Of a DNA stretch of 64,000 nucleotides, positions 16,170 to 61,605 are shown piece after piece; position 1 is the stretch's first letter; every line of letters starts with the position of its first letter. This stretch comes from a virus. Its lineage: Duplodnaviria > Caudoviricetes. The notes under the pieces were generated by a model that did not search any database, had not been told where the DNA came from, and worked only from the letters and a program-made list of their open reading frames with translations. The stretch lies in the IMG/VR virus record IMGVR_UViG_3300042291_001013. The stretch is one strand, 5' to 3'. A program made the translations under genes and the position numbers.

Positions 16170-16388
16170 TTATCGACGTCTAGTAATGCGGCCTTTGGTA
16201 ACATCGTATGGGCTAAATTCAATTTCCACACGATCACCCAATAGGATTTTAATGTGGTGCATGCGCATCTTACCAGATATAAAACCAGTCACAGGTTTTT
16301 GTTGTCCATCTACCAGTACGCGGAACATAGCATTGGGCAATACCTCTAGGATAGTGCCGTCCATACGAAATCCTTCTTCTTTAGCCAT
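16170..16388 (-). CDS. infA: translation initiation factor IF-1
   Basis: [38 protein letters not shown]. Confidence 0.95.
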
Positions 16389-39943: not shown

Positions 39944-41548
39944 ATGCGTGATTTACTCAACTTACTCGATAAAGTAGCTTTGCCCTTGATTGAAGGGGTA
40001 GGACTGTCCAATCGCAAGCCTGGCGAACGATTCAAAAACTCTGTAGAAGATATTGTTACCTTTCAAGGTTTAGAATTTTACCCACAATCAGGTGCTTACC
40101 CTGCTGATCAATTGCAGGACGCTGTGGCACAGATTGCGCAACAGATGGGCATAGGAATTGAGCAAATCCACTGGACCAATGCTGAACCACCTGGTGGTGC
40201 TGGTTTTGGTATTGCTTCGTTCACAGGCGAGGATGGTAATTCGTACTACCTGGGTCGCTACTTTAAGAATGTTAGTCCAAATCGTACACAAAACAACTTC
40301 CCACATGATGCTATTCCTGGTGACTTCAAGTACCAAAGCAAAGCAGGACAAAAGGAAAACTCTGGTCTCAAGCCCAGTGAATGGTTGACCCAATTCAAGG
40401 ACAACACTCCTGACACAATTTTACAACAGTGCATTGCCAAGTTTGGTGCAGGCAGTTCAGAAGCAACAGCATTAGATGCATTTATCAATGGAGATGTTCC
40501 GTTGCAAGTAGCCCGAGGCATGATGAATGCCGGTGCATTCCGTGACTACTTTGCTGAAGTACTACAACCCATTGCCTTGGTCATGGGCAAAAATGTATCA
40601 GGTAATGCCGCAGAAGCTGCCAGCATTTTCTTTGGCACAGGCGCAGACTATAGTGATTGCACAATCAGTTTTAATTCTAATACCATTGGTGGCCTGTACG
40701 ACAGTTTGCTGGTGAGTCCCCAAGGCAAACAGATCAAGCTGTCTAGCAAAGGCAAAGACGGTGCGTCAGCATCGGTGACCAACTTGCAGAAGAGTGTGCA
40801 AGAACTTGCCAACGTTCCTGCCGGTAAAAAGTTGCTGTCAAATTTTGCAAACGAAATTGACATACTAAACACCATTGAAAAACAAGGACACTTTGGTGCT
40901 CCACTCAAGTTGGCTGTTCAGTATGGCATGATTACCGACAAAGAAGCACAACAAGTAATGAGTCTCAAACAATACGGGCCCAATGATCAAATCATTGGCT
41001 CGGGCATTCTTAGTAAAAAATTAGAAGGCATGTATCAAGGACGTAATGCTAGAGACGCAAGTCGTATCATTCCCATTGAGCATTTGACTGCGGCCATTGC
41101 TTACAAAGTTGCTGACCATGTAAACAAAAACACCAACTTTGGCAGTGCGGCATCTCAGATTCTCAACAATGCGGCTCTGGTGCAAATGTACACTGACACC
41201 AAAGACGATGCTGAGACCATTACCATAACCAAACTCACTGCGGTATATCCCAGCCAGACAGTTACTGGTGTGTTATTGGATGCTTCAAAGGTGTACTTCT
41301 CCACAGGTGGCAAAGGCAACTACACGTTTACTATTTTGAAAAATGGTGCCACGCCACAAGATGTCAGTCCTGTAGATGGTATTGACAGTATTGAAGGAAC
41401 AGCCCCAGCCGTGCCGGCTACAAACGACCAATTGGATCAAGCTGTAGCACAGCCCAGACTGCGTGGACCTGGAGCCAAGATAGCAAAAACTGCCGCTGAA
41501 CCTAACTTTGACGAAAAAGTGCTAGGTCGTAAGAAACAAACTCGTTAA
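39944..41548 (+). CDS. large hypothetical protein (possible virion internal protein)
   Basis: 534 aa; LIE near the N-terminus; YDSLLV..IKLSSK. Confidence 0.6.
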
Positions 41549-42120
41549 CGAGTCAGTTGGCTGATGTGATCACAGATGCCCAGTTGCAAGGCATCATCCG
41601 CACCTAGATAAACATCATGCGGTGGCAACAGATGTTGCTTGATTTGGTCTTCGCTTAGACCTGTACAATCTATGTAGTGCTGTACCATGCGTTTTTGTGT
41701 GAGTTCAAACTCTTTAATTGTGGCCAACAGTTCATGATGTTTGCCATCACTGCCCCAGGCATACTGGTGACTCATGATTGATGTATTGGGAGTAAGAGTT
41801 CTACGTCCCGGTGTTCCTGCCAAAAAGATCAACAATCCGGCACTGGCAATTTGCCCCAGACCCACAGCTTTGATTGGAATGAGAGAACTGCGCATGACAT
41901 CAATTAGTGCAAATGCCGAACTCATATCCCCACCTTCTGAACAAATCATCAGCAAGAGTTCTTTGCGTTTTCTCTTGGCCACAAAGTTCTCGTGCAGGAT
42001 CCACTCAATTATGGGTTTGATGTTGTCATCATCAACTTCGCCCATGAAAACGTACATTCCTGCGTCGGCCAAGGCTTGGGTATGAGTCTGCTCAATTGTT
42101 TGTGTGGTTTCGGTGGTCAT
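41545..42120 (-). CDS. divergent ClpP-family (S14) peptidase
   Basis: ICSEGG, QIASAG (Ser), MSHQ (His), D.YL.A..AL.LGI.D. Confidence 0.8.
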   Translation of the reverse strand: MTTETTQTIEQTHTQALADAGMYVFMGEVDDDNIKPIIEWILHENFVAKRKRKELLLMICSEGGDMSSAFALIDVMRSSLIPIKAVGLGQIASAGLLIFLAGTPGRRTLTPNTSIMSHQYAWGSDGKHHELLATIKEFELTQKRMVQHYIDCTGLSEDQIKQHLLPPHDVYLGADDALQLGICDHISQLTR

Positions 42121-42131
42121 TTTAAAGTAGA

Positions 42132-42157
42132 GAAAGCGGTGTTTTGGCACCGCTTTT
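42132..42157. terminator. terminator hairpin
   Basis: AAAGCGGTG-ttttgg-CACCGCTTT. Confidence 0.65.
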
Positions 42158-42170
42158 ATTTATACGCCGT

Positions 42171-42995
42171 TTATCTAAGTGTAATTTGTCCAACTACAGC
42201 ACCGGGCTTTTGAAGGGCCTCGTCCCGACGCCGCTTGTATTCAGCATTGTCCACGTCCAGTAATTTTATGTCACCCTGCGATGTTGGGGCAGATTCTGTG
42301 GGTTTTTCAGGTACCACAACCGGTGTCACCTTGCTTTGCGGGGCCAAACTGCGCTCTAGTGCTTGGTCAGCGTTTTGCTCACGTTTGGCATCGGCCGCTT
42401 CATTCTTGTCCATGTCACGTTCTGCGGCACGACCACGTATGTCGCCTTCACGTTGTAAACGAGACTGATCTCGACGTGTTTGGATTGCATTGGCCGCTCC
42501 CACGGGCAATCGCAACAGCACATAGACCTTGTAGGCTTGGCCATCATGAGTGACTTGACTGTCTACTCGTTGTGCTCCACTAAGCTCGCCGCGAGCATTT
42601 TTGCGTGTGACCTGCTGGTAATTCTCAACCATGGCCTGGCCACGATCAGCTCGGTAGCTGTTGGTCTGTGTGGTAATTCTAGCATACATCTGCTCAACCA
42701 GCTTGCGTTCTGCTGACATACGTGCTTTGTCGTATGCCATTTGCTCATCGCTGGATGTAGCTGTGCCCACTGCAAAGGTCATGTCTGCGGTATCTTCGGG
42801 CATGTTGACAAACCAAGCAGGAGCCTGTGCCACTGTGCGAGCCTGACGCTGGGGCAGGGCGTAGGGATGTGATACCAGTGCCTGTGCCACAGCCACTGGC
42901 TGTGCTGGCAAGGGTGCCGGAGTATCAACTGTTTTGGGATTGCTACTGCATGCCGCCAATGTTGAAACAGCCACAGCCAAAATTGAATATTTCAT
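42171..42995 (-). CDS. LPP20-like lipoprotein
   Basis: Lipobox LAAC; PAWF..AVGTA..AYDKAR..A. Confidence 0.65.
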   Translation of the reverse strand: MKYSILAVAVSTLAACSSNPKTVDTPAPLPAQPVAVAQALVSHPYALPQRQARTVAQAPAWFVNMPEDTADMTFAVGTATSSDEQMAYDKARMSAERKLVEQMYARITTQTNSYRADRGQAMVENYQQVTRKNARGELSGAQRVDSQVTHDGQAYKVYVLLRLPVGAANAIQTRRDQSRLQREGDIRGRAAERDMDKNEAADAKREQNADQALERSLAPQSKVTPVVVPEKPTESAPTSQGDIKLLDVDNAEYKRRRDEALQKPGAVVGQITLR

Positions 42996-43039
42996 GATTA
43001 CCTCTAGTGAGTTACAATACAAGTAGTTTAACACAGTTG

Positions 43040-43606
43040 TCAAAATTTGTCAACGACTACCCAATCCGTTTTGCGAATCTGGCAAATGATGCCTTGGTAG
43101 TTGTGGATGTCCTGTCCGGTAAAGGAAGGTTCAGTAAACCAACGACATCTAGTGCCGTTGTGCCAGAACTCATTGGGAAAATTTGGATGCGGTCTAAATT
43201 GATGTAGCTGAGCATGCACACCAATTGCTACGTTTCGAGCTGGATTGAAATCGTCACGATCTGTACACACCATGACCCTTTGCGTGGCCACTTGGCTGGG
43301 TCCTGCTTGCTCACGTGCATGACTGTCTGCTCGAGTTTGGGCAATACCACATGCTTCGGCACTGGGACGATCTCCTGGCCAATCATGATAGCCTGAAGCC
43401 ATGTACCATGCACTGCCAATACGTGCTTGAAAGCTGACTTCACAGCGTTGATACCCGGCCAGTCCTGGCGTTGGCACAACATGCTGACGAATGCCCGAAC
43501 GTTCTTGTATTTGCACATTGCTGGCAGTGCTGGTGCGATCAGTCAACACACAGGCCGCTTGTACTGTTACAGGCAGTAATGCCAAAATTACTAGACGTTT
43601 TAACAT
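43040..43606 (-). CDS. secreted Cys-containing protein
   Basis: Signal peptide ..VQA-AC; several Cys pairs. Confidence 0.6.
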   Translation of the reverse strand: MLKRLVILALLPVTVQAACVLTDRTSTASNVQIQERSGIRQHVVPTPGLAGYQRCEVSFQARIGSAWYMASGYHDWPGDRPSAEACGIAQTRADSHAREQAGPSQVATQRVMVCTDRDDFNPARNVAIGVHAQLHQFRPHPNFPNEFWHNGTRCRWFTEPSFTGQDIHNYQGIICQIRKTDWVVVDKF

Positions 43607-43944
43607 TCTGCCAGTTCCCGAAGTAGGTAGTTGATGTATTTGTTGGGATTTCCATGAGCCATGTCATAGTTGACCAAGTAAACTCTAGGGTTGGTCACCA
43701 GTTGGTCGCTACGCCACATCAGTCGCATACGTGCGGCAAACTGTTCTTCTTGAGAGAGTCGTTGTCTTTGCAAGAATTCAATTTGTTCTTGTTTGCGACG
43801 GCAATCAACTTGATAGTAGTTAAGGTCCATGGATGTCATGGGCACTCGTTCAGGCATGGGTTGCGTTGCACAGCCACTAAACAGGCTGACAGTGATAACG
43901 CAGATGCCAAATACGGTAACGAATTTGCGCACGGTAGTCTTCAT
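43600..43944 (-). CDS. lipoprotein
   Basis: Lipobox FSGC. Confidence 0.6.
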   Translation of the reverse strand: MKTTVRKFVTVFGICVITVSLFSGCATQPMPERVPMTSMDLNYYQVDCRRKQEQIEFLQRQRLSQEEQFAARMRLMWRSDQLVTNPRVYLVNYDMAHGNPNKYINYLLRELAEC

Positions 43945-44122
43945 AGGCACGTTCATTTTGCAAGGGTTGACGAGGAACAGCCAGCTGGGTTTGATACCAG
44001 TTTATAATGGCCACGCGGTTGGCGCAGTCAGTGGGCATCACTGCTACTGACGCAGGAACACGTTGGTCGTAAGTGCTACAACCAACAAGTGATAACAGAA
44101 CCATGGCTAGAATTGTTTTCAT
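43877..44122 (-). CDS. lipoprotein
   Basis: Lipobox LVGC. Confidence 0.6.
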   Translation of the reverse strand: MKTILAMVLLSLVGCSTYDQRVPASVAVMPTDCANRVAIINWYQTQLAVPRQPLQNERAYEDYRAQIRYRIWHLRYHCQPV

Positions 44123-44125
44123 TCC

Positions 44126-44317
44126 TTAACATTCTACGTCTATGTGACGTCCTTTGTCCGAGTCCAAACGAACATTTCGTGCAACACGTTCTGCAATGAT
44201 TCTATCAAAGTTGCGTTTCTCAACTACCTTGCGATAGTCTTCTTCACGCCGGTCTTGCAATTGAATCCGTTCCTGCCGATGCATCTGTAAGTTATGATCA
44301 ATTCTAGCAACGTTCAT
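44126..44317 (-). CDS. hypothetical charged protein
   Basis: ATGA coupling with the ArfA-like gene. Confidence 0.6.
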   Translation of the reverse strand: MNVARIDHNLQMHRQERIQLQDRREEDYRKVVEKRNFDRIIAERVARNVRLDSDKGRHIDVEC

Positions 44318-44463
44318 TCTTCAACTCGATTCTTGTGCTTGAGCTTGCGCTTAAAAACTGTTTTGGGCTGTTCCACACGACCGCGGAACGGCAGGTCTGA
44401 ATCGAACAGGGCTCGATGTCGACGTTCCTTTACAGGTGCTAGTGTGAAATGTATCGGCTTCAT
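44314..44463 (-). CDS. ArfA-like alternative ribosome rescue factor (49 aa, not in ORF track)
   Basis: MKPIHFTLAPVKERRHRALFDSDLPFRGRVEQPKTVFKRKLKHKNRVEE aligns by eye with the ArfA core [31 protein letters not shown]. Confidence 0.62.
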   Translation of the reverse strand: MKPIHFTLAPVKERRHRALFDSDLPFRGRVEQPKTVFKRKLKHKNRVEE

Positions 44464-44472
44464 AGTAGTGTA

Positions 44473-44501
44473 ATTATAGCAAAACAAGATTTATTGGTCA
44501 A
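44473..44501 (-). promoter_or_regulatory. early promoter TTGACC-N17-TATAAT, 9 nt before ATG
   Basis: Read directly. Confidence 0.78.
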
Positions 44502-44746: not shown

Positions 44747-45010
44747 TCAACCAAATTCGTACATGTACTGGGCAACCCTTGGATCCATCTTGATCAGATC
44801 TTTTGCCGCGGCAGTCAATGCACGATAACGAGCTTGTACTTGACTACGGGGCAGTTCGCCATCGCAGGTTAAATTTTCAGGACTCAATGCAGAATCAATC
44901 ATTTGGGCCACTTGCTTGCGGCCTTCAAAAGTGTCAACTTCATATTGACGACTTTTAAAAATTGCATTGTACTGATTTTCACGATCAATATAGGCTTGTA
45001 GTGCTTTCAT
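44747..45010 (-). CDS. conserved phage hypothetical protein
   Basis: SPENLTCDGEL motif; promoter at 45041-45069. Confidence 0.65.
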   Translation of the reverse strand: MKALQAYIDRENQYNAIFKSRQYEVDTFEGRKQVAQMIDSALSPENLTCDGELPRSQVQARYRALTAAAKDLIKMDPRVAQYMYEFG

Positions 45011-45040: not shown

Positions 45041-45069
45041 ATTATAGCAAATTGGGAATTTTTGGTCAA
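45041..45069 (-). promoter_or_regulatory. repeated early promoter TTGACC-N17-TATAAT
   Basis: Read directly. Confidence 0.8.
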
Positions 45070-45888: not shown

Positions 45889-46890
45889 TTACTTGATCTG
45901 TGTCCAAACACGTTCACGGATTTGTTTTGTTAGTGCATCAGGCAAACTCACATAGTCTAGGTCCACAGCATCTTTCTTGCCATTCTTGAATGCCCAGTCA
46001 AAGAACTTTAGTACTTCGTCGCTGGTGGCCTTGTTCTTTGGCTCTTTGTACATGATGATAAAACTTGCCGAACTTATTGGCCAAGCATTGGGATTCTTTT
46101 GATCCACGATGCTCAGGCCCATGCCAGGAACTGAAAACCAGTCAGCACCGTCTGCGGCAGCCGCAAATGTTACATCATCTGGACTAACATACCGGCCTGA
46201 TTTGTTTTGTACTTGTAAGAATGTCATTTTGTTTTGTTTAACATAAGCATACTCTACATAACCAATTGCACCCTTAACTCTAGTCACGTTGGCTGCAACA
46301 CCTTCGTTGCCTTTGCCGCCCAATGAAGTGGCAGCTGGCCATTTGACTGCGGGACCACGACCTACTCGAGCCAACCACTCGGGGCTGACAGTGGCAAGAT
46401 AATCTGTCCAGTTAAATGTTGTGCCAGAGCCATCAGCACGATGAACAATGGTAATAGGTTGATCTGGTAACTGCTTACCTGGATTCAATGCTACAAGTCT
46501 AGGATCATTCCACTTGGTGATGTTGCCCAAGAACACATCAGCTAGTACTGGGCCAGTGATACGTAGTTCACCTGGCTTGAATCCGTCCAAGTTGATCACA
46601 GGAACTGTTCCGCCAATGATAGCTGGGAATTGAATCTGTCCGTTCTTGTCTAAGTTCTCTCCGCTAACAGGCGCATCAGTTGCGCCAAAGTCCACGGTCT
46701 TGGCATTGATTTGTCTAATGCCGCCTGAACTACCAATACTCTGGTAATTTAAACTTACTCCTGTGGCTTTCTTGTATCCTTCGGCCCACTTGTAGTAGAT
46801 TGGGTACGGGAAAGTTGCACCGGCACCCACAATATCCGCTTGTGCAGTAACGGCGACTGCGGCTAATAAAATTGCTAATAGTTTGTTCAC
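45889..46890 (-). CDS. pstS: phosphate ABC transporter substrate-binding protein
   Basis: GAGATFPYP, YQSIGSSGG, RADGSGTT, GAIGYVE. Confidence 0.95.
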   Translation of the reverse strand: MNKLLAILLAAVAVTAQADIVGAGATFPYPIYYKWAEGYKKATGVSLNYQSIGSSGGIRQINAKTVDFGATDAPVSGENLDKNGQIQFPAIIGGTVPVINLDGFKPGELRITGPVLADVFLGNITKWNDPRLVALNPGKQLPDQPITIVHRADGSGTTFNWTDYLATVSPEWLARVGRGPAVKWPAATSLGGKGNEGVAANVTRVKGAIGYVEYAYVKQNKMTFLQVQNKSGRYVSPDDVTFAAAADGADWFSVPGMGLSIVDQKNPNAWPISSASFIIMYKEPKNKATSDEVLKFFDWAFKNGKKDAVDLDYVSLPDALTKQIRERVWTQIK

Positions 46891-46944: not shown

Positions 46945-47232
46945 TTACAAAATCATACGAACCAACCCTACTGTGTCGATAGTGGTCAACAGTAAATAGT
47001 TAGCCAACATGCCAAAAGATTTCCTAGTCCAACTAGCCCAAGCATACAAACTACAGCCAGCAATCCAAACAGGATAAAGAGCAAGAAGCGGGGGATTGGG
47101 GACTGTGAGTGCCATAGTAATACTGCAACCCACACTAATAGCCCATGCAACAAGCTCAATAACAAAGCGAACTCGATTAGATTTAAAGTCATCTCGTATC
47201 CAAGTAAATGTGTTAAGAAATATATTGTTCAT
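46945..47232 (-). CDS. membrane protein (about 3 TM)
   Basis: Hydrophobic ORF. Confidence 0.6.
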   Translation of the reverse strand: MNNIFLNTFTWIRDDFKSNRVRFVIELVAWAISVGCSITMALTVPNPPLLALYPVWIAGCSLYAWASWTRKSFGMLANYLLLTTIDTVGLVRMIL

Positions 47233-48235
47233 AAAGTTGTTCACTTGCCAAGTTTTTGCCTTTGGCTTCGACTTGTATATCAAACTGATCACGAAAGCCC
47301 AAGACCCATGAATTCACAGCTGAATTCCAACAGAAGTCACTGTGGGCCCGGAGCTTCTGCTTCTTATAACCTCTAGCAAGAAGTTCAGCAAGGTCTGGTC
47401 GAACGTTTCGATCATGGTCGACCAAAACGTCCTCGCGACTAGTACTAAAATGCATTGCAGGACGAACACCGCGCCAGCTGTCAATAACCCGACTTGTACG
47501 AACGTCCTGCGGTTCGATGTATTCGCCTGTGTTGATCCAGTGGTGGTGTACATCCAACACAAGAGCCACATGCTGAGCCACAGCCAAAGTAGAGTCCAAT
47601 CCATTTGTCATCTCGTCATTCTCGATGGTCATCAAGTTCCTGGCCTCTGGAGTGAGGCGACCCAAGGTCTTTAGGAATTTAGCGGCACCACCTTTGCCAC
47701 TTAAATGTACATTTATCTTGAATCCGTGATCATGCCAACTTTTACCGTAACCCATCCACCGAGCCATGTCTGCGTGGTACTCGAATTCCAGTATTGATCG
47801 TTCAACAATTTCGTCCGACTCACTAGCCAGTACGCAGAATTGCCCAGGGTGAAAAGAGAGCCGCACACCAAGATCTCGAGCACGAGCACCGATCGGATCA
47901 AAGATCTTGGCACAGTGATCTTGAACATCCTGCTGTTGCCAAAACGGAATCCAATCTTCATGTGTGTATCCTTGTAGCATTTCTGAGCCTAGCCGCACCA
48001 TGCGTCGACCTTCGGGCAGGGTGGCCACACGCTCTATCATGAGCAGGGCCGCACGAGCATTGTGGTTCATGATGTCCCACTGACGCTGTTCCGCTTCGCT
48101 TTTGTGTTCGCGAAGCCACCTCATAGTAGTTGATCTGCCGTTTAGGTCACGGTCCTTTGCATTGACTTTCATGCCCCCACATTCATTAGGGTCATTGAGC
48201 CACTTGCAACAAAAGCCAATTCTAGGTGTAGTCAT
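47213..48235 (-). CDS. uvdE: UV damage endonuclease (UvdE/UvsE)
   Basis: RIGFCC, RLSFHPGQF.VL, IEND, LDVHHHW, HSD, VEAKGK. Confidence 0.9.
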   Translation of the reverse strand: MTTPRIGFCCKWLNDPNECGGMKVNAKDRDLNGRSTTMRWLREHKSEAEQRQWDIMNHNARAALLMIERVATLPEGRRMVRLGSEMLQGYTHEDWIPFWQQQDVQDHCAKIFDPIGARARDLGVRLSFHPGQFCVLASESDEIVERSILEFEYHADMARWMGYGKSWHDHGFKINVHLSGKGGAAKFLKTLGRLTPEARNLMTIENDEMTNGLDSTLAVAQHVALVLDVHHHWINTGEYIEPQDVRTSRVIDSWRGVRPAMHFSTSREDVLVDHDRNVRPDLAELLARGYKKQKLRAHSDFCWNSAVNSWVLGFRDQFDIQVEAKGKNLASEQLYEQYIS

Positions 48236-48241
48236 GTGTTG

Positions 48242-48270
48242 ATTATACAGCAATTTCCATTAATTGTCAA
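48242..48270 (-). promoter_or_regulatory. consensus promoter TTGACA-N17-TATAAT, 6 nt before the uvdE ATG
   Basis: Read directly. Confidence 0.8.
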
Positions 48271-52494: not shown

Positions 52495-54543
52495 ATGTTG
52501 AAAAAAATAGCATTAAGTCCTTGGACGGCCTTGTTAACATTGGCACTTGTTTTAAGTATAAGAATTGCTGATCCTGTCTTTGTAGAAAGTGTAAGACTGC
52601 GCTACTTTGACACGCTGATTACTGACCGTGCTGTCACTGTGAGTGAACAAATTCACGTGGTCAACATTGACGATCGCGCCATTGCTGAACGTGGACAATT
52701 TCCCTTTCCTAGAAGTCAGTATGCTGCCATAATCAAAGCCCTTGATGATCGCAATGCTGGTGTGATTGTGTTTAACATATTCATGCCTGATGCGGATCGT
52801 TTTGGGCAAGACTCTGCCCTGGCTCGGCAACTCAAACAGAGTACAGTGGTGTTGCCACACATGGCCACCAACGAAGACGCTGTGCCCAAGTACCCACCCT
52901 ACAGACCCGGAGTTTCTGTAATAGGCTCTGGCTTGCCGGGCATAGCGTATCAAAGTATTCAACCCAACGTGAGGTTACTAAATGAAACAGCAAGCGGTAT
53001 TGGTATTGTTAACACTTTGCCTGAAATCGACGGCGTTGTACGCCGAGTCCCCCAAGTCATCACAGTTGGAGAACAAGTCTATCCCTCCATCAGTCTTGAA
53101 ACGCTTAGAGTTGCTGCCGGAGATCCCAGCTTCCAGGTCCGAGTCAATGACGGAAGCGTTGAAGCAGTTAGAATTCCACAGTTTGGAAAAATTCCAACAG
53201 ACAATCTCGGTAGAATCTGGGTGGATTGGTCATCCCAGCCGCAAGAACATTCCTTGGCTGATTTGCCAAAGGACTTCCAAGGTGGAATTGTCATTGTTGG
53301 ACTCACCGCTCGCGGGCTCAACAACCCCGTCGCAACTGCAAGAGGAGAAGTCTATCCGCACCATTTGCAAGCCAGCGTACTAGCCACTGTGGCTGCAGGC
53401 ACAAATATTGTGCGTCCAGACTACGCAGACGGAGTTGAAATACTTGCTATTTTAGCCGCAGGTGTGTTATTATTAATTTTTACAAGGTGGGTTTATGTTG
53501 GACTGGCATCGTTGGTTGGAATATGCGCTGTACTTGCGTATGGCAGTTACTTTAGTTTTGTCAATTACCTTTGGCTATTTGACGTTACCCTCCCAGTCGC
53601 AGGCATCGTCCTCGTCGGGCTACACGCCTACGGAGTCAAGTTTGTCTCAGAGTTCCTCCAAAAACAAGCAATCAAAAAACAATTCGCAGGCTACTGTTCC
53701 AAGGAAGTGGTAGAGCTGTTGCAAAAAGATCCTGACTTGATCAAGCGCGGTGTGCGCAAAGACGTATCAGTTATGTTCAGTGACCTACGTGGATTTACTC
53801 CCATTGGTGAACACTACGGCGATGACGTAGCAGGACTTGGCCGATACATGAACGGCTACATGGACAGCATCAGTCAGCCCATGTTGGACAACAAGGGCAT
53901 GATCATCAAATATGTGGGTGATGCATCAATGCACATACATGGTGCTCCTATTGAAGACTTAAATCACGCACGAACAATCGTTGCTGTTGGCTTAGAAATG
54001 CTGGATGCTGTAGACGAATATACCAAGCTGATGGAAGCACAAGGCTTACCACCAGCCGCAATGGGGTGGGGTTGTAACACAGGCATTGGCTTTATTGGTG
54101 AGATGGGGTCAACAGAACGACACAGCTATGACATCTTGGGTGACATGGTTTCAACTGCGGCACGACTAGAAGCACGTTGCAAGGCCTATGGCGTGTTGGC
54201 CATTGTTGGTGCCGAAACTTACAATCGTACTCGAGATGACTTCTTCTATTTGTTGCTAGATAACTTACAACCCAAAGGCAAAACAGTAGCAGACTTGATC
54301 TACACAGTACTACGCACACGTGGTGCGGATTATACTAAAGAACTTGAAACCCACACCAAGATGCATGCCTTGTACAAAGAAAAACAATTTGATGCGGCAG
54401 TTATCTTATGCGAAGAATTGCACGGCAAGTTTGGCGGGCAAATGGACAAGTACTACAAGATGTGGATTGAACGCTGTGGGTTCATGAAGCAACAAGACTT
54501 ACCTGACAACTGGAACGGTGAGTTTGTTGCGCACGAAAAGTAA
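52495..54543 (+). CDS. CHASE2-domain class III adenylate cyclase
   Basis: N-terminal TM, CHASE2 (VVNIDD, FPFPR, DGVVRR), 3 TM, FSDLRGFT, KYVGD, GD.V.TAARLE. Confidence 0.9.
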   Translation: MLKKIALSPWTALLTLALVLSIRIADPVFVESVRLRYFDTLITDRAVTVSEQIHVVNIDDRAIAERGQFPFPRSQYAAIIKALDDRNAGVIVFNIFMPDADRFGQDSALARQLKQSTVVLPHMATNEDAVPKYPPYRPGVSVIGSGLPGIAYQSIQPNVRLLNETASGIGIVNTLPEIDGVVRRVPQVITVGEQVYPSISLETLRVAAGDPSFQVRVNDGSVEAVRIPQFGKIPTDNLGRIWVDWSSQPQEHSLADLPKDFQGGIVIVGLTARGLNNPVATARGEVYPHHLQASVLATVAAGTNIVRPDYADGVEILAILAAGVLLLIFTRWVYVGLASLVGICAVLAYGSYFSFVNYLWLFDVTLPVAGIVLVGLHAYGVKFVSEFLQKQAIKKQFAGYCSKEVVELLQKDPDLIKRGVRKDVSVMFSDLRGFTPIGEHYGDDVAGLGRYMNGYMDSISQPMLDNKGMIIKYVGDASMHIHGAPIEDLNHARTIVAVGLEMLDAVDEYTKLMEAQGLPPAAMGWGCNTGIGFIGEMGSTERHSYDILGDMVSTAARLEARCKAYGVLAIVGAETYNRTRDDFFYLLLDNLQPKGKTVADLIYTVLRTRGADYTKELETHTKMHALYKEKQFDAAVILCEELHGKFGGQMDKYYKMWIERCGFMKQQDLPDNWNGEFVAHEK

Positions 54544-61380: not shown

Positions 61381-61605
61381 TCAATACAGTTTTCGGGGTA
61401 GACTCTGTGCGTCCAATTTCTTTTGCCAGCGATTCTTTGCGGCTGACTTTTTGCGTTTGCGCTCGGTTGTGGGTTTTTCGTAAAATTCTTTGGCACGGAC
61501 GTCATCCAGTATGCCTGAGGCCTGTATCTTTTTCTTGAATTTACGCAGTGCTTTGTCTACATTGCCATCTTGTACCAGTACGGATCTACCTCTTAATTTA
61601 ACCAT
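61381..61605 (-). CDS. rpsU: ribosomal protein bS21
   Basis: [14 protein letters not shown]...G...EFYEKPT..RKRK. Confidence 0.92.

Follow-up and report, generated by a model that had tools for sequence, protein, structure and literature searches.

The Escherichia coli ribosome-rescue factor ArfA (YhdL; PF03889; PDB 5MDV, 5U4I, 5H5U and 5MGP) is ordered only when it is on the ribosome. Its residues 15–31 contact release factor 2 (RF2), with F25 occupying a hydrophobic RF2 pocket and Q27–E30 adding a strand to the RF2 sheet, and its basic C-terminal part, including a KH motif, fills the empty messenger RNA (mRNA) channel (PMC8012679, PMC6299226). A truncation to 40 residues is inactive, and 46–48 residues are ordered on the ribosome (PMC8012679, PMC6299226). 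No residue of the KGKGS motif is essential (PMC6299226), and the substitution A18T blocks activation, without which binding can still occur (PMC8012679). The cellular gene is tightly controlled: a hairpin leads to termination or to RNase III cleavage, and hence to a non-stop mRNA, and the product is destroyed through tagging by transfer-messenger RNA (tmRNA) unless tmRNA is overwhelmed, the full-length hydrophobic tail being unstable (PMC8012679). ArfT of Francisella and BrfA of Bacillus are likewise small rescue peptides that depend on a release factor and have a basic C-terminal tail, and they are regarded as having evolved independently; BrfA has a KH motif, and ArfT is not regulated via non-stop mRNA (PMC8012679, PMC6299226). 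Here we describe an ArfA-like gene in a window of 64,000 nucleotides (the whole stretch of DNA that was analysed) from a virus of the Caudoviricetes (Duplodnaviria; IMG/VR record IMGVR_UViG_3300042291_001013). By sequence comparison, its 49-residue product belongs with ArfA, and the gene lacks the controls that restrain its bacterial counterpart.

A sequence-only reading of this DNA had pointed to a 49-residue open reading frame (ORF) missing from its own ORF track. The ORF is present on the minus strand (Table 1), and its product ends in NRVEE, directly followed by the TGA stop codon. Among 5.8 billion proteins searched by word index, 64 homologues were found, with 57–94% identity and nearly all of them 49–52 residues long; an alignment of 41 homologues contains 15 invariant positions. 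Ratios of nonsynonymous to synonymous substitution (dN/dS) were 0.07–0.24 in comparisons with 15 relatives, with synonymous sites close to saturation, indicating purifying selection on the ORF. The start codon and an in-frame stop after 49–52 codons are kept in all 19 distinct relatives. The ORF is nonetheless very short, and a 59-residue ORF on the plus strand overlaps it; hence, it might be a chance ORF, or owe its conservation to an opposite-strand gene or to an RNA. We regard this as scarcely credible and reject it, since the low dN/dS applies to the ArfA-like frame, start and stop are conserved, alternative translation signals in relatives serve the same frame, and at least 135 clusters at 50% identity share the same length and motif. 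The ArfA-like ORF is a real, conserved gene. A conserved partner gene was sought immediately downstream in the relatives, but the 63-residue ORF found there in the window has no family match and is not conserved: the ArfA-like gene is retained while its downstream neighbour changes.

Profile searches connect this family with ArfA, as the sequence-only reading had proposed from an alignment by eye. The single 49-residue protein had no match in the PDB, and among PHROGs it had only a weak match, to phrog_2701, whose function is unknown (E = 0.011). A profile built from 41 family members and searched against 177,635 distinct PDB sequences gave six matches, all of which were ArfA chains (best E = 0.0025). 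In the whole six-frame E. coli genome, the same profile had one match, arfA itself (E = 0.008), and a wider profile of 107 members identified three places in 401 Pseudomonadota genomes, each a canonical arfA. Alignment of the family with 14 Pfam-type ArfA sequences using hhalign gave a probability of 94.1% (E = 1.2e-7) over 31 columns, among them those of the RF2-contact segment. A bridge is provided by the ArfA of Pseudoalteromonas phage J2-1 (MF988720, ATN93434.1), which clears PF03889 at 40–41 bits and shares 48% identity with the window protein over 40 residues (pairwise E = 2e-9). A language-model neighbour search, which we treat as a lead only, returned one ArfA cluster and one DUF7230 cluster amid mostly unnamed proteins. 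On the strength of these comparisons, we consider the 49-residue protein to be a genuine, if divergent, homologue of ArfA that falls beyond the limits of the curated families.

The ArfA label itself is not new. JGI gives most close homologues the name 'stalled ribosome alternative rescue factor ArfA', and ArfA has been annotated in two phages, so that the gene was unannotated at most in the ORF track used by the sequence-only reading. One of these annotations is that of phage J2-1; the other, g10 of Citromicrobium phage RXM, is mentioned as ArfA in one sentence (PMC8953757) and is known to us by that description only. What is new is the variant (stop-terminated, probably leaderless, with a Leu-Pro-Phe (LPF) signature and a short loop), how widely it occurs among viruses, and the presence of a phage tmRNA alongside it.

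HMMER and hhalign produced the same alignment register, which is also that of the earlier alignment by eye, and we used it to pair residues of the phage protein with those of E. coli ArfA; every phage position paired here is either invariant across the family or conserved to at least 90%. Phage residues 16–31 match the RF2-contact segment. A18, L19 and L24 correspond to E. coli A18, L19 and L24, whereas F26 corresponds to F25, R27 to R26, R29 to R28, V30 to V29 and E31 to E30, such that G28–E31 takes the place of the Q27–E30 strand. By alignment, the phage protein keeps the RF2-contact segment of ArfA, and no part of the family is better conserved: A18, L19, F20, L24, P25, F26, R27 and R29 are invariant. 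The basic tail, residues 34–46, contains K34, K38, R39, K40, K42–H43, K44 and R46. Within it, R39 corresponds to E. coli R41, K42 to K44, H43 to H45, N45 to N47 and R46 to R48; in the KH motif at positions 42–43, conservation is complete at H43 and at least 90% at K42. Thus, the two proteins have in common an N-terminal segment of the form A-L-x4-L-F-R-x-R-V-E and a basic C-terminal tail of the form Y/F-x-R-K-x-K-H-x-N-R. They are also similar in size, at 49 residues for the phage protein and 52–55 for mature E. coli ArfA, and the phage protein is longer than the inactive 40-residue truncation.

The phage J2-1 protein resembles that of the window in being phage-encoded, stop-ended, short (51 residues) and without KGKGS. 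Unlike the window protein, which clears neither model, it clears both PF03889 and DUF7230; it has no LPF proline, and the position of A18 in the window protein is taken by Q. Phage J2-1 is a marine phage of 142 kb, in which no tmRNA scored above the Rfam cut-off. ArfT and BrfA were not among the matches of our family searches, and we liken them to the phage protein by their published descriptions.

The phage gene differs from E. coli arfA most clearly in its regulation. As the sequence-only reading had noted, the hydrophobic C-terminal tail is absent. The gene ends in a true in-frame stop codon, as do its counterparts in 19 of 19 distinct relatives read. RNA folding of the ORF gave no significant structure (z = −0.9), and no terminator-like site was found inside it; hence, the hairpin that serves E. 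coli arfA for RNase III cleavage or termination has no equivalent here. Since the ATG of the next ORF overlaps the TGA, the transcript is expected to run past the stop codon. The presence of a true stop codon would place the gene beyond tmRNA repression, and the phage probably makes the ArfA-like protein whatever the state of the main rescue system. The stop codon itself is TGA in 15 of the 19 relatives, TAA in four and TAG in none. RF2 reads both TGA and TAA; the absence of TAG may be meaningless, because most of the TGA codons come from ATGA overlaps with the next gene.

The gene has its own promoter, of the sigma-70 type, in agreement with the sequence-only reading. It matches the consensus at 11 of 12 positions (Table 1), and its boxes and their spacing are kept in 15 of 19 distinct relatives. 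Of the other four, three have a GGAG-type Shine-Dalgarno sequence in place of the promoter, and the leader of the fourth is longer. In the window, only nine nucleotides separate the -10 box from the ATG, and they include no Shine-Dalgarno sequence; hence, the mRNA probably has no leader, or almost none, and is probably transcribed by host RNA polymerase. A longer, 57-residue form starting at a TTG was considered and discarded, since its start would fall inside the promoter and relatives give it no support. Given the stop codon, the absence of hairpin, terminator and tail, the near-consensus promoter and the probably leaderless mRNA, synthesis should begin once host RNA polymerase reads the phage DNA, at any level of tmRNA activity. 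The type of promoter suggests that expression would be early, as had been proposed. A second promoter of the same architecture (TTGACC, a 17-nucleotide spacer and TGnTATAAT; 11 of 12 positions) precedes an 87-residue ORF nearby, and the region around the ArfA-like gene is a run of small early-type genes, each with a strong promoter of its own.

The sequence-only reading placed the gene in a translation toolkit with IF-1 and bS21. Both proteins are encoded in the window, although neither gene is adjacent to the ArfA-like gene (infA lies 28 kb away and rpsU 17 kb), and the window also codes for ClpS, Hsp20, ClpX and ClpP. Searches for tmRNA, SmpB and release factors were made not in the window genome but in five related contigs from IMG/VR, each with the ArfA-like gene. 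All five contigs encode bS21 and four encode IF-1. Four carry a two-piece tmRNA of the beta type, two of them above the Rfam cut-off, whereas SmpB and class-I release factors were found in none of the five. ARAGORN identified a permuted tmRNA in two related contigs, with the tag ANDSQFALAA. In smaller viral contigs with an ArfA-like gene, a search for one-piece tmRNA gave only tRNA-like matches below threshold. The co-occurrence with IF-1 and bS21 is supported; the lineage's own tmRNA had been overlooked. The lineage appears to carry a primary rescue RNA together with an ArfA-type factor, leaning on host SmpB and host RF2. A beta-type tmRNA fits a betaproteobacterial host, which would be inside the known range of ArfA. 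With the tmRNA of its relatives and the ClpX, ClpP and ClpS of the window, the phage may tag stalled products and degrade them as well.

Taken as a whole, these observations are probably best explained by a divergent phage-borne ArfA homologue that rescues stalled ribosomes via host RF2. By analogy with E. coli ArfA, when a ribosome has run to the 3' end of a truncated mRNA and stalled, the basic C-terminal half of the protein (K34 to R46, with K42–H43) would enter the vacant mRNA entry channel. In the N-terminal half, A18, L19, L24, F26 and the strand G28–E31 would dock host RF2 and hold it in its open, active form; RF2 would then hydrolyse the peptidyl-tRNA, and the ribosome would be freed. 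The RF2 would have to be that of the host, because the phage encodes no release factor, as judged from the related contigs. The likely benefit is that ribosomes would stay available while infection, or host defence nucleases, truncate many mRNAs, and the ArfA-like factor would work beside the two-piece tmRNA seen in related contigs.

Several points weigh against this explanation. The sequence-only reading had named the lack of an ArfA profile match among its grounds for refutation, and on that count the protein would fail: the curated Pfam and NCBIfam models gave no match to the 49-residue protein at E-values up to 10. PF03889 found nothing in the five related phage contigs, and BLASTP gave no alignment with E. 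coli ArfA. The family profile reaches only modest E-values (0.0025 and 0.008), over a short stretch in which basic residues abound. The protein also departs from E. coli ArfA: KGKGS is missing, with Q-P-K-T-V in its place and a loop shortened by three residues, and an extra proline precedes the key phenylalanine, giving the LPF signature of the family. The match at A18 is weak evidence, because Pfam-positive ArfA sequences do not all keep this residue. Three RNA-library runs that contain about 5% of the sampled words gave only short contigs from relatives, and one 88-nucleotide piece from these runs lies inside the ArfA-like ORF, which speaks neither for nor against transcription. The literature searched, which leaves most subscription journals outside it, includes no functional study of any phage ArfA. 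Of the jumbo-phage papers listed there, none mentions ArfA, and no paper names DUF7230. Overall, the observation made in the sequence-only reading is confirmed, and its interpretation is supported in part.

The altered loop and the inserted proline also bear on a different possibility, namely that the peptide blocks rescue. It could fill the vacant mRNA channel without productive activation of RF2 and so exclude host tmRNA-SmpB or host ArfA, which could serve host shut-off or shield nascent phage chains from tagging. The protein retains the tail that would bind the channel, and its KH motif, but has lost KGKGS and has a proline beside the RF2-contact phenylalanine; moreover, E. coli ArfA(A18T) binds without activating (PMC8012679), showing that the two steps can be uncoupled. 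However, the RF2-contact segment, which would be superfluous in a pure channel plug, is the most conserved part of the protein, and a lineage with a tmRNA of its own would not be expected to block trans-translation. We therefore consider a blocking role quite unlikely.

Rescue through RF2 must also be weighed against the wider relationships of the family. An exhaustive profile search of 1.84 billion representatives identified at least 135 clusters (50% identity) at E-values up to 0.001, almost all of 35–60 residues and with the common motif R-x-H-x2-L-F-x3-(L/T/S)-P-F ... K-x2-Y-x-R-K-x-K-H. The wider members that we examined lie in phage-like arrays of small genes beside nucleotide-metabolism genes, and distant members occur on many IMG/VR contigs. 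By tblastn of three family members against 50,697 GenBank phage records, only phage J2-1 was found. A strict-pattern scan of about 185,000 bacterial species genomes found no close relatives; such a scan is limited to close relatives, the wider alignment being too diverse for these patterns, and it does not show absence. A profile search of the 401 sampled genomes likewise found no member of the LPF type.

Among the 107 wider members, 42 match DUF7230 (PF23876) below threshold and nine match ArfA. DUF7230 is encoded in bacterial chromosomes, in 10 of 400 genomes sampled. The window protein has no DUF7230 match in Pfam. An hhalign comparison of the window family with DUF7230 gave a probability of 63%, over the C-terminal 22 columns only. 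DUF7230 proteins are about 40–70 residues long (bacterial loci L156–L165; genomes G730, G033, G245 and others), with an N-terminal motif N-P-V-A-K-H-A. Their C-terminal half, as in ArfA, is a module of the form F-R-D-K-T-K-Y-x-R-K-x-K-H, and this module is also what they share with the window family. In several members, the C terminus is a hydrophobic tail that resembles the one regulated in ArfA. DUF7230, ArfA and the viral branch probably make up one superfamily, and DUF7230 may be an unrecognised family of ArfA-like rescue factors. We also noted a Pfam-positive ArfA of 38 residues in a 1750-bp contig of a bacterial genome (Table 1); it has KGKGS, and its stop codon comes right after K-H-R. 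Stop-terminated short ArfA may thus not be exclusive to phages, the contig being too short to tell whether it is viral.

Membership in a superfamily of small basic peptides (ArfA, DUF7230 and the LPF type) could mean that the phage protein has some other ribosome- or RNA-binding role that is not tied to RF2, possibly the recruitment of RF1, as ArfT does, or the modulation of initiation on leaderless mRNAs. The excess of DUF7230 matches among wider members, the J2-1 protein that clears both Pfam models and the hhalign result for the C-terminal columns all favour such a role. Against it, the N-terminal module aligns with ArfA, whereas the N-P-V-A-K-H-A half of DUF7230 fails to align with the window family, and family profiles single out ArfA both in the PDB and in bacterial genomes. 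On balance, we think a role apart from RF2 unlikely and continue to favour rescue via host RF2.

The window is phage DNA, as the sequence-only reading had supposed, and the related contigs are those of a jumbo phage lineage, that is, of giant freshwater phages. The window has matches to tail-fibre and structural-protein PHROGs, and many of its large ORFs have no Pfam family. Gene order around the homologues is kept in contigs of 238–361 kb, with UvdE, UDP-glucose dehydrogenase, two ClpP genes and a radical SAM gene. A pattern scan of IMG/VR found 52 loci, including contigs of 343 kb and 349 kb, with CheckV completeness of 99% and 97%, respectively. Some 20 metagenome runs from lake water contain the window DNA.

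Just downstream of the ArfA-like operon are four consecutive small ORFs with signal peptides. Their lipobox-like motifs are clear in three cases (L-A-A-C, F-S-G-C and L-V-G-C) and weaker in one (Q-A-A-C), and none of the four has a Pfam family. These ORFs may encode lipoproteins of the phage, with a role in, for instance, superinfection exclusion. In P0095, an 82-residue family representative from one relative, the signal and lipobox part of a homologue of the ORF at 43600-43956 is fused in frame to an ArfA-like C-terminal half, which is probably a deletion or an assembly variant.

Table 1. Coordinates of the ArfA-like gene, its signals, and other features of the window and of related or compared contigs
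Feature	Position	Strand	Details
ArfA-like gene	44314-44463	minus	ATG at 44463; 49 codons plus TGA at 44314-44316
Sigma-70-type promoter	44473-44501	minus	11/12 consensus positions
-35 box	44501-44496	minus	TTGACC
-10 box	44478-44473	minus	TATAAT; 17-nucleotide spacer with TG extension (TGnTATAAT)
Interval between -10 box and ATG	44472-44464		
Downstream 63-residue ORF	44126-44317	minus	ATG overlaps the TGA of the ArfA-like gene (ATGA)
Second promoter	45041-45069	minus	
87-residue ORF	44747-45010		Preceded by the second promoter
Four ORFs with signal peptides	42171-44122	minus	
ClpP	41545-42150	minus	2.2 kb from the ArfA-like gene; syntenic with it in relatives
PstS, phosphate-binding protein	45889-46890		Signal peptide
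UvdE, UV endonuclease	47213-48253		
CHASE2-adenylate/guanylate cyclase	52495-54543		
infA (IF-1)	16176-16388	minus	PF01176, 67.2 bits
rpsU (bS21)	61384-61605	minus	PF01165, 72 bits; adjoins ClpX, Hsp20, ClpS
Permuted betaproteobacterial-type tmRNA region, related phage contig (G304)	L146:1521-1966		
Permuted betaproteobacterial-type tmRNA region, related phage contig (G303)	L147:1481-1959		
38-residue ArfA, bacterial genome G062	L143:140-253		

Bacterial ArfA is a back-up that appears only when tmRNA fails; the phage version comes without that safety catch, and is accompanied by the lineage's tmRNA, IF-1, bS21, tRNAs and Clp machinery. A sizeable viral branch of the family escapes the curated ArfA models. 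More speculatively, stop-ended ArfA-like peptides of 45–55 residues may form a large and mostly viral family, missed by Pfam and NCBIfam, which giant freshwater phages pair with a two-piece tmRNA and Clp proteins as a ribosome-rescue kit, for counter-defence as well as housekeeping. Such a kit would keep host ribosomes at work during mRNA cutting, whether by the phage or by host abortive-infection nucleases; we put this forward tentatively, as possible but doubtful. If the peptide does recruit host RF2, viruses would actively manage ribosome stalling. It would then offer structural and mechanistic work a natural, minimal and constitutive ArfA, lacking KGKGS and with its loop shortened by three residues, and it would represent a testable route by which phages may blunt defences that cut mRNA.
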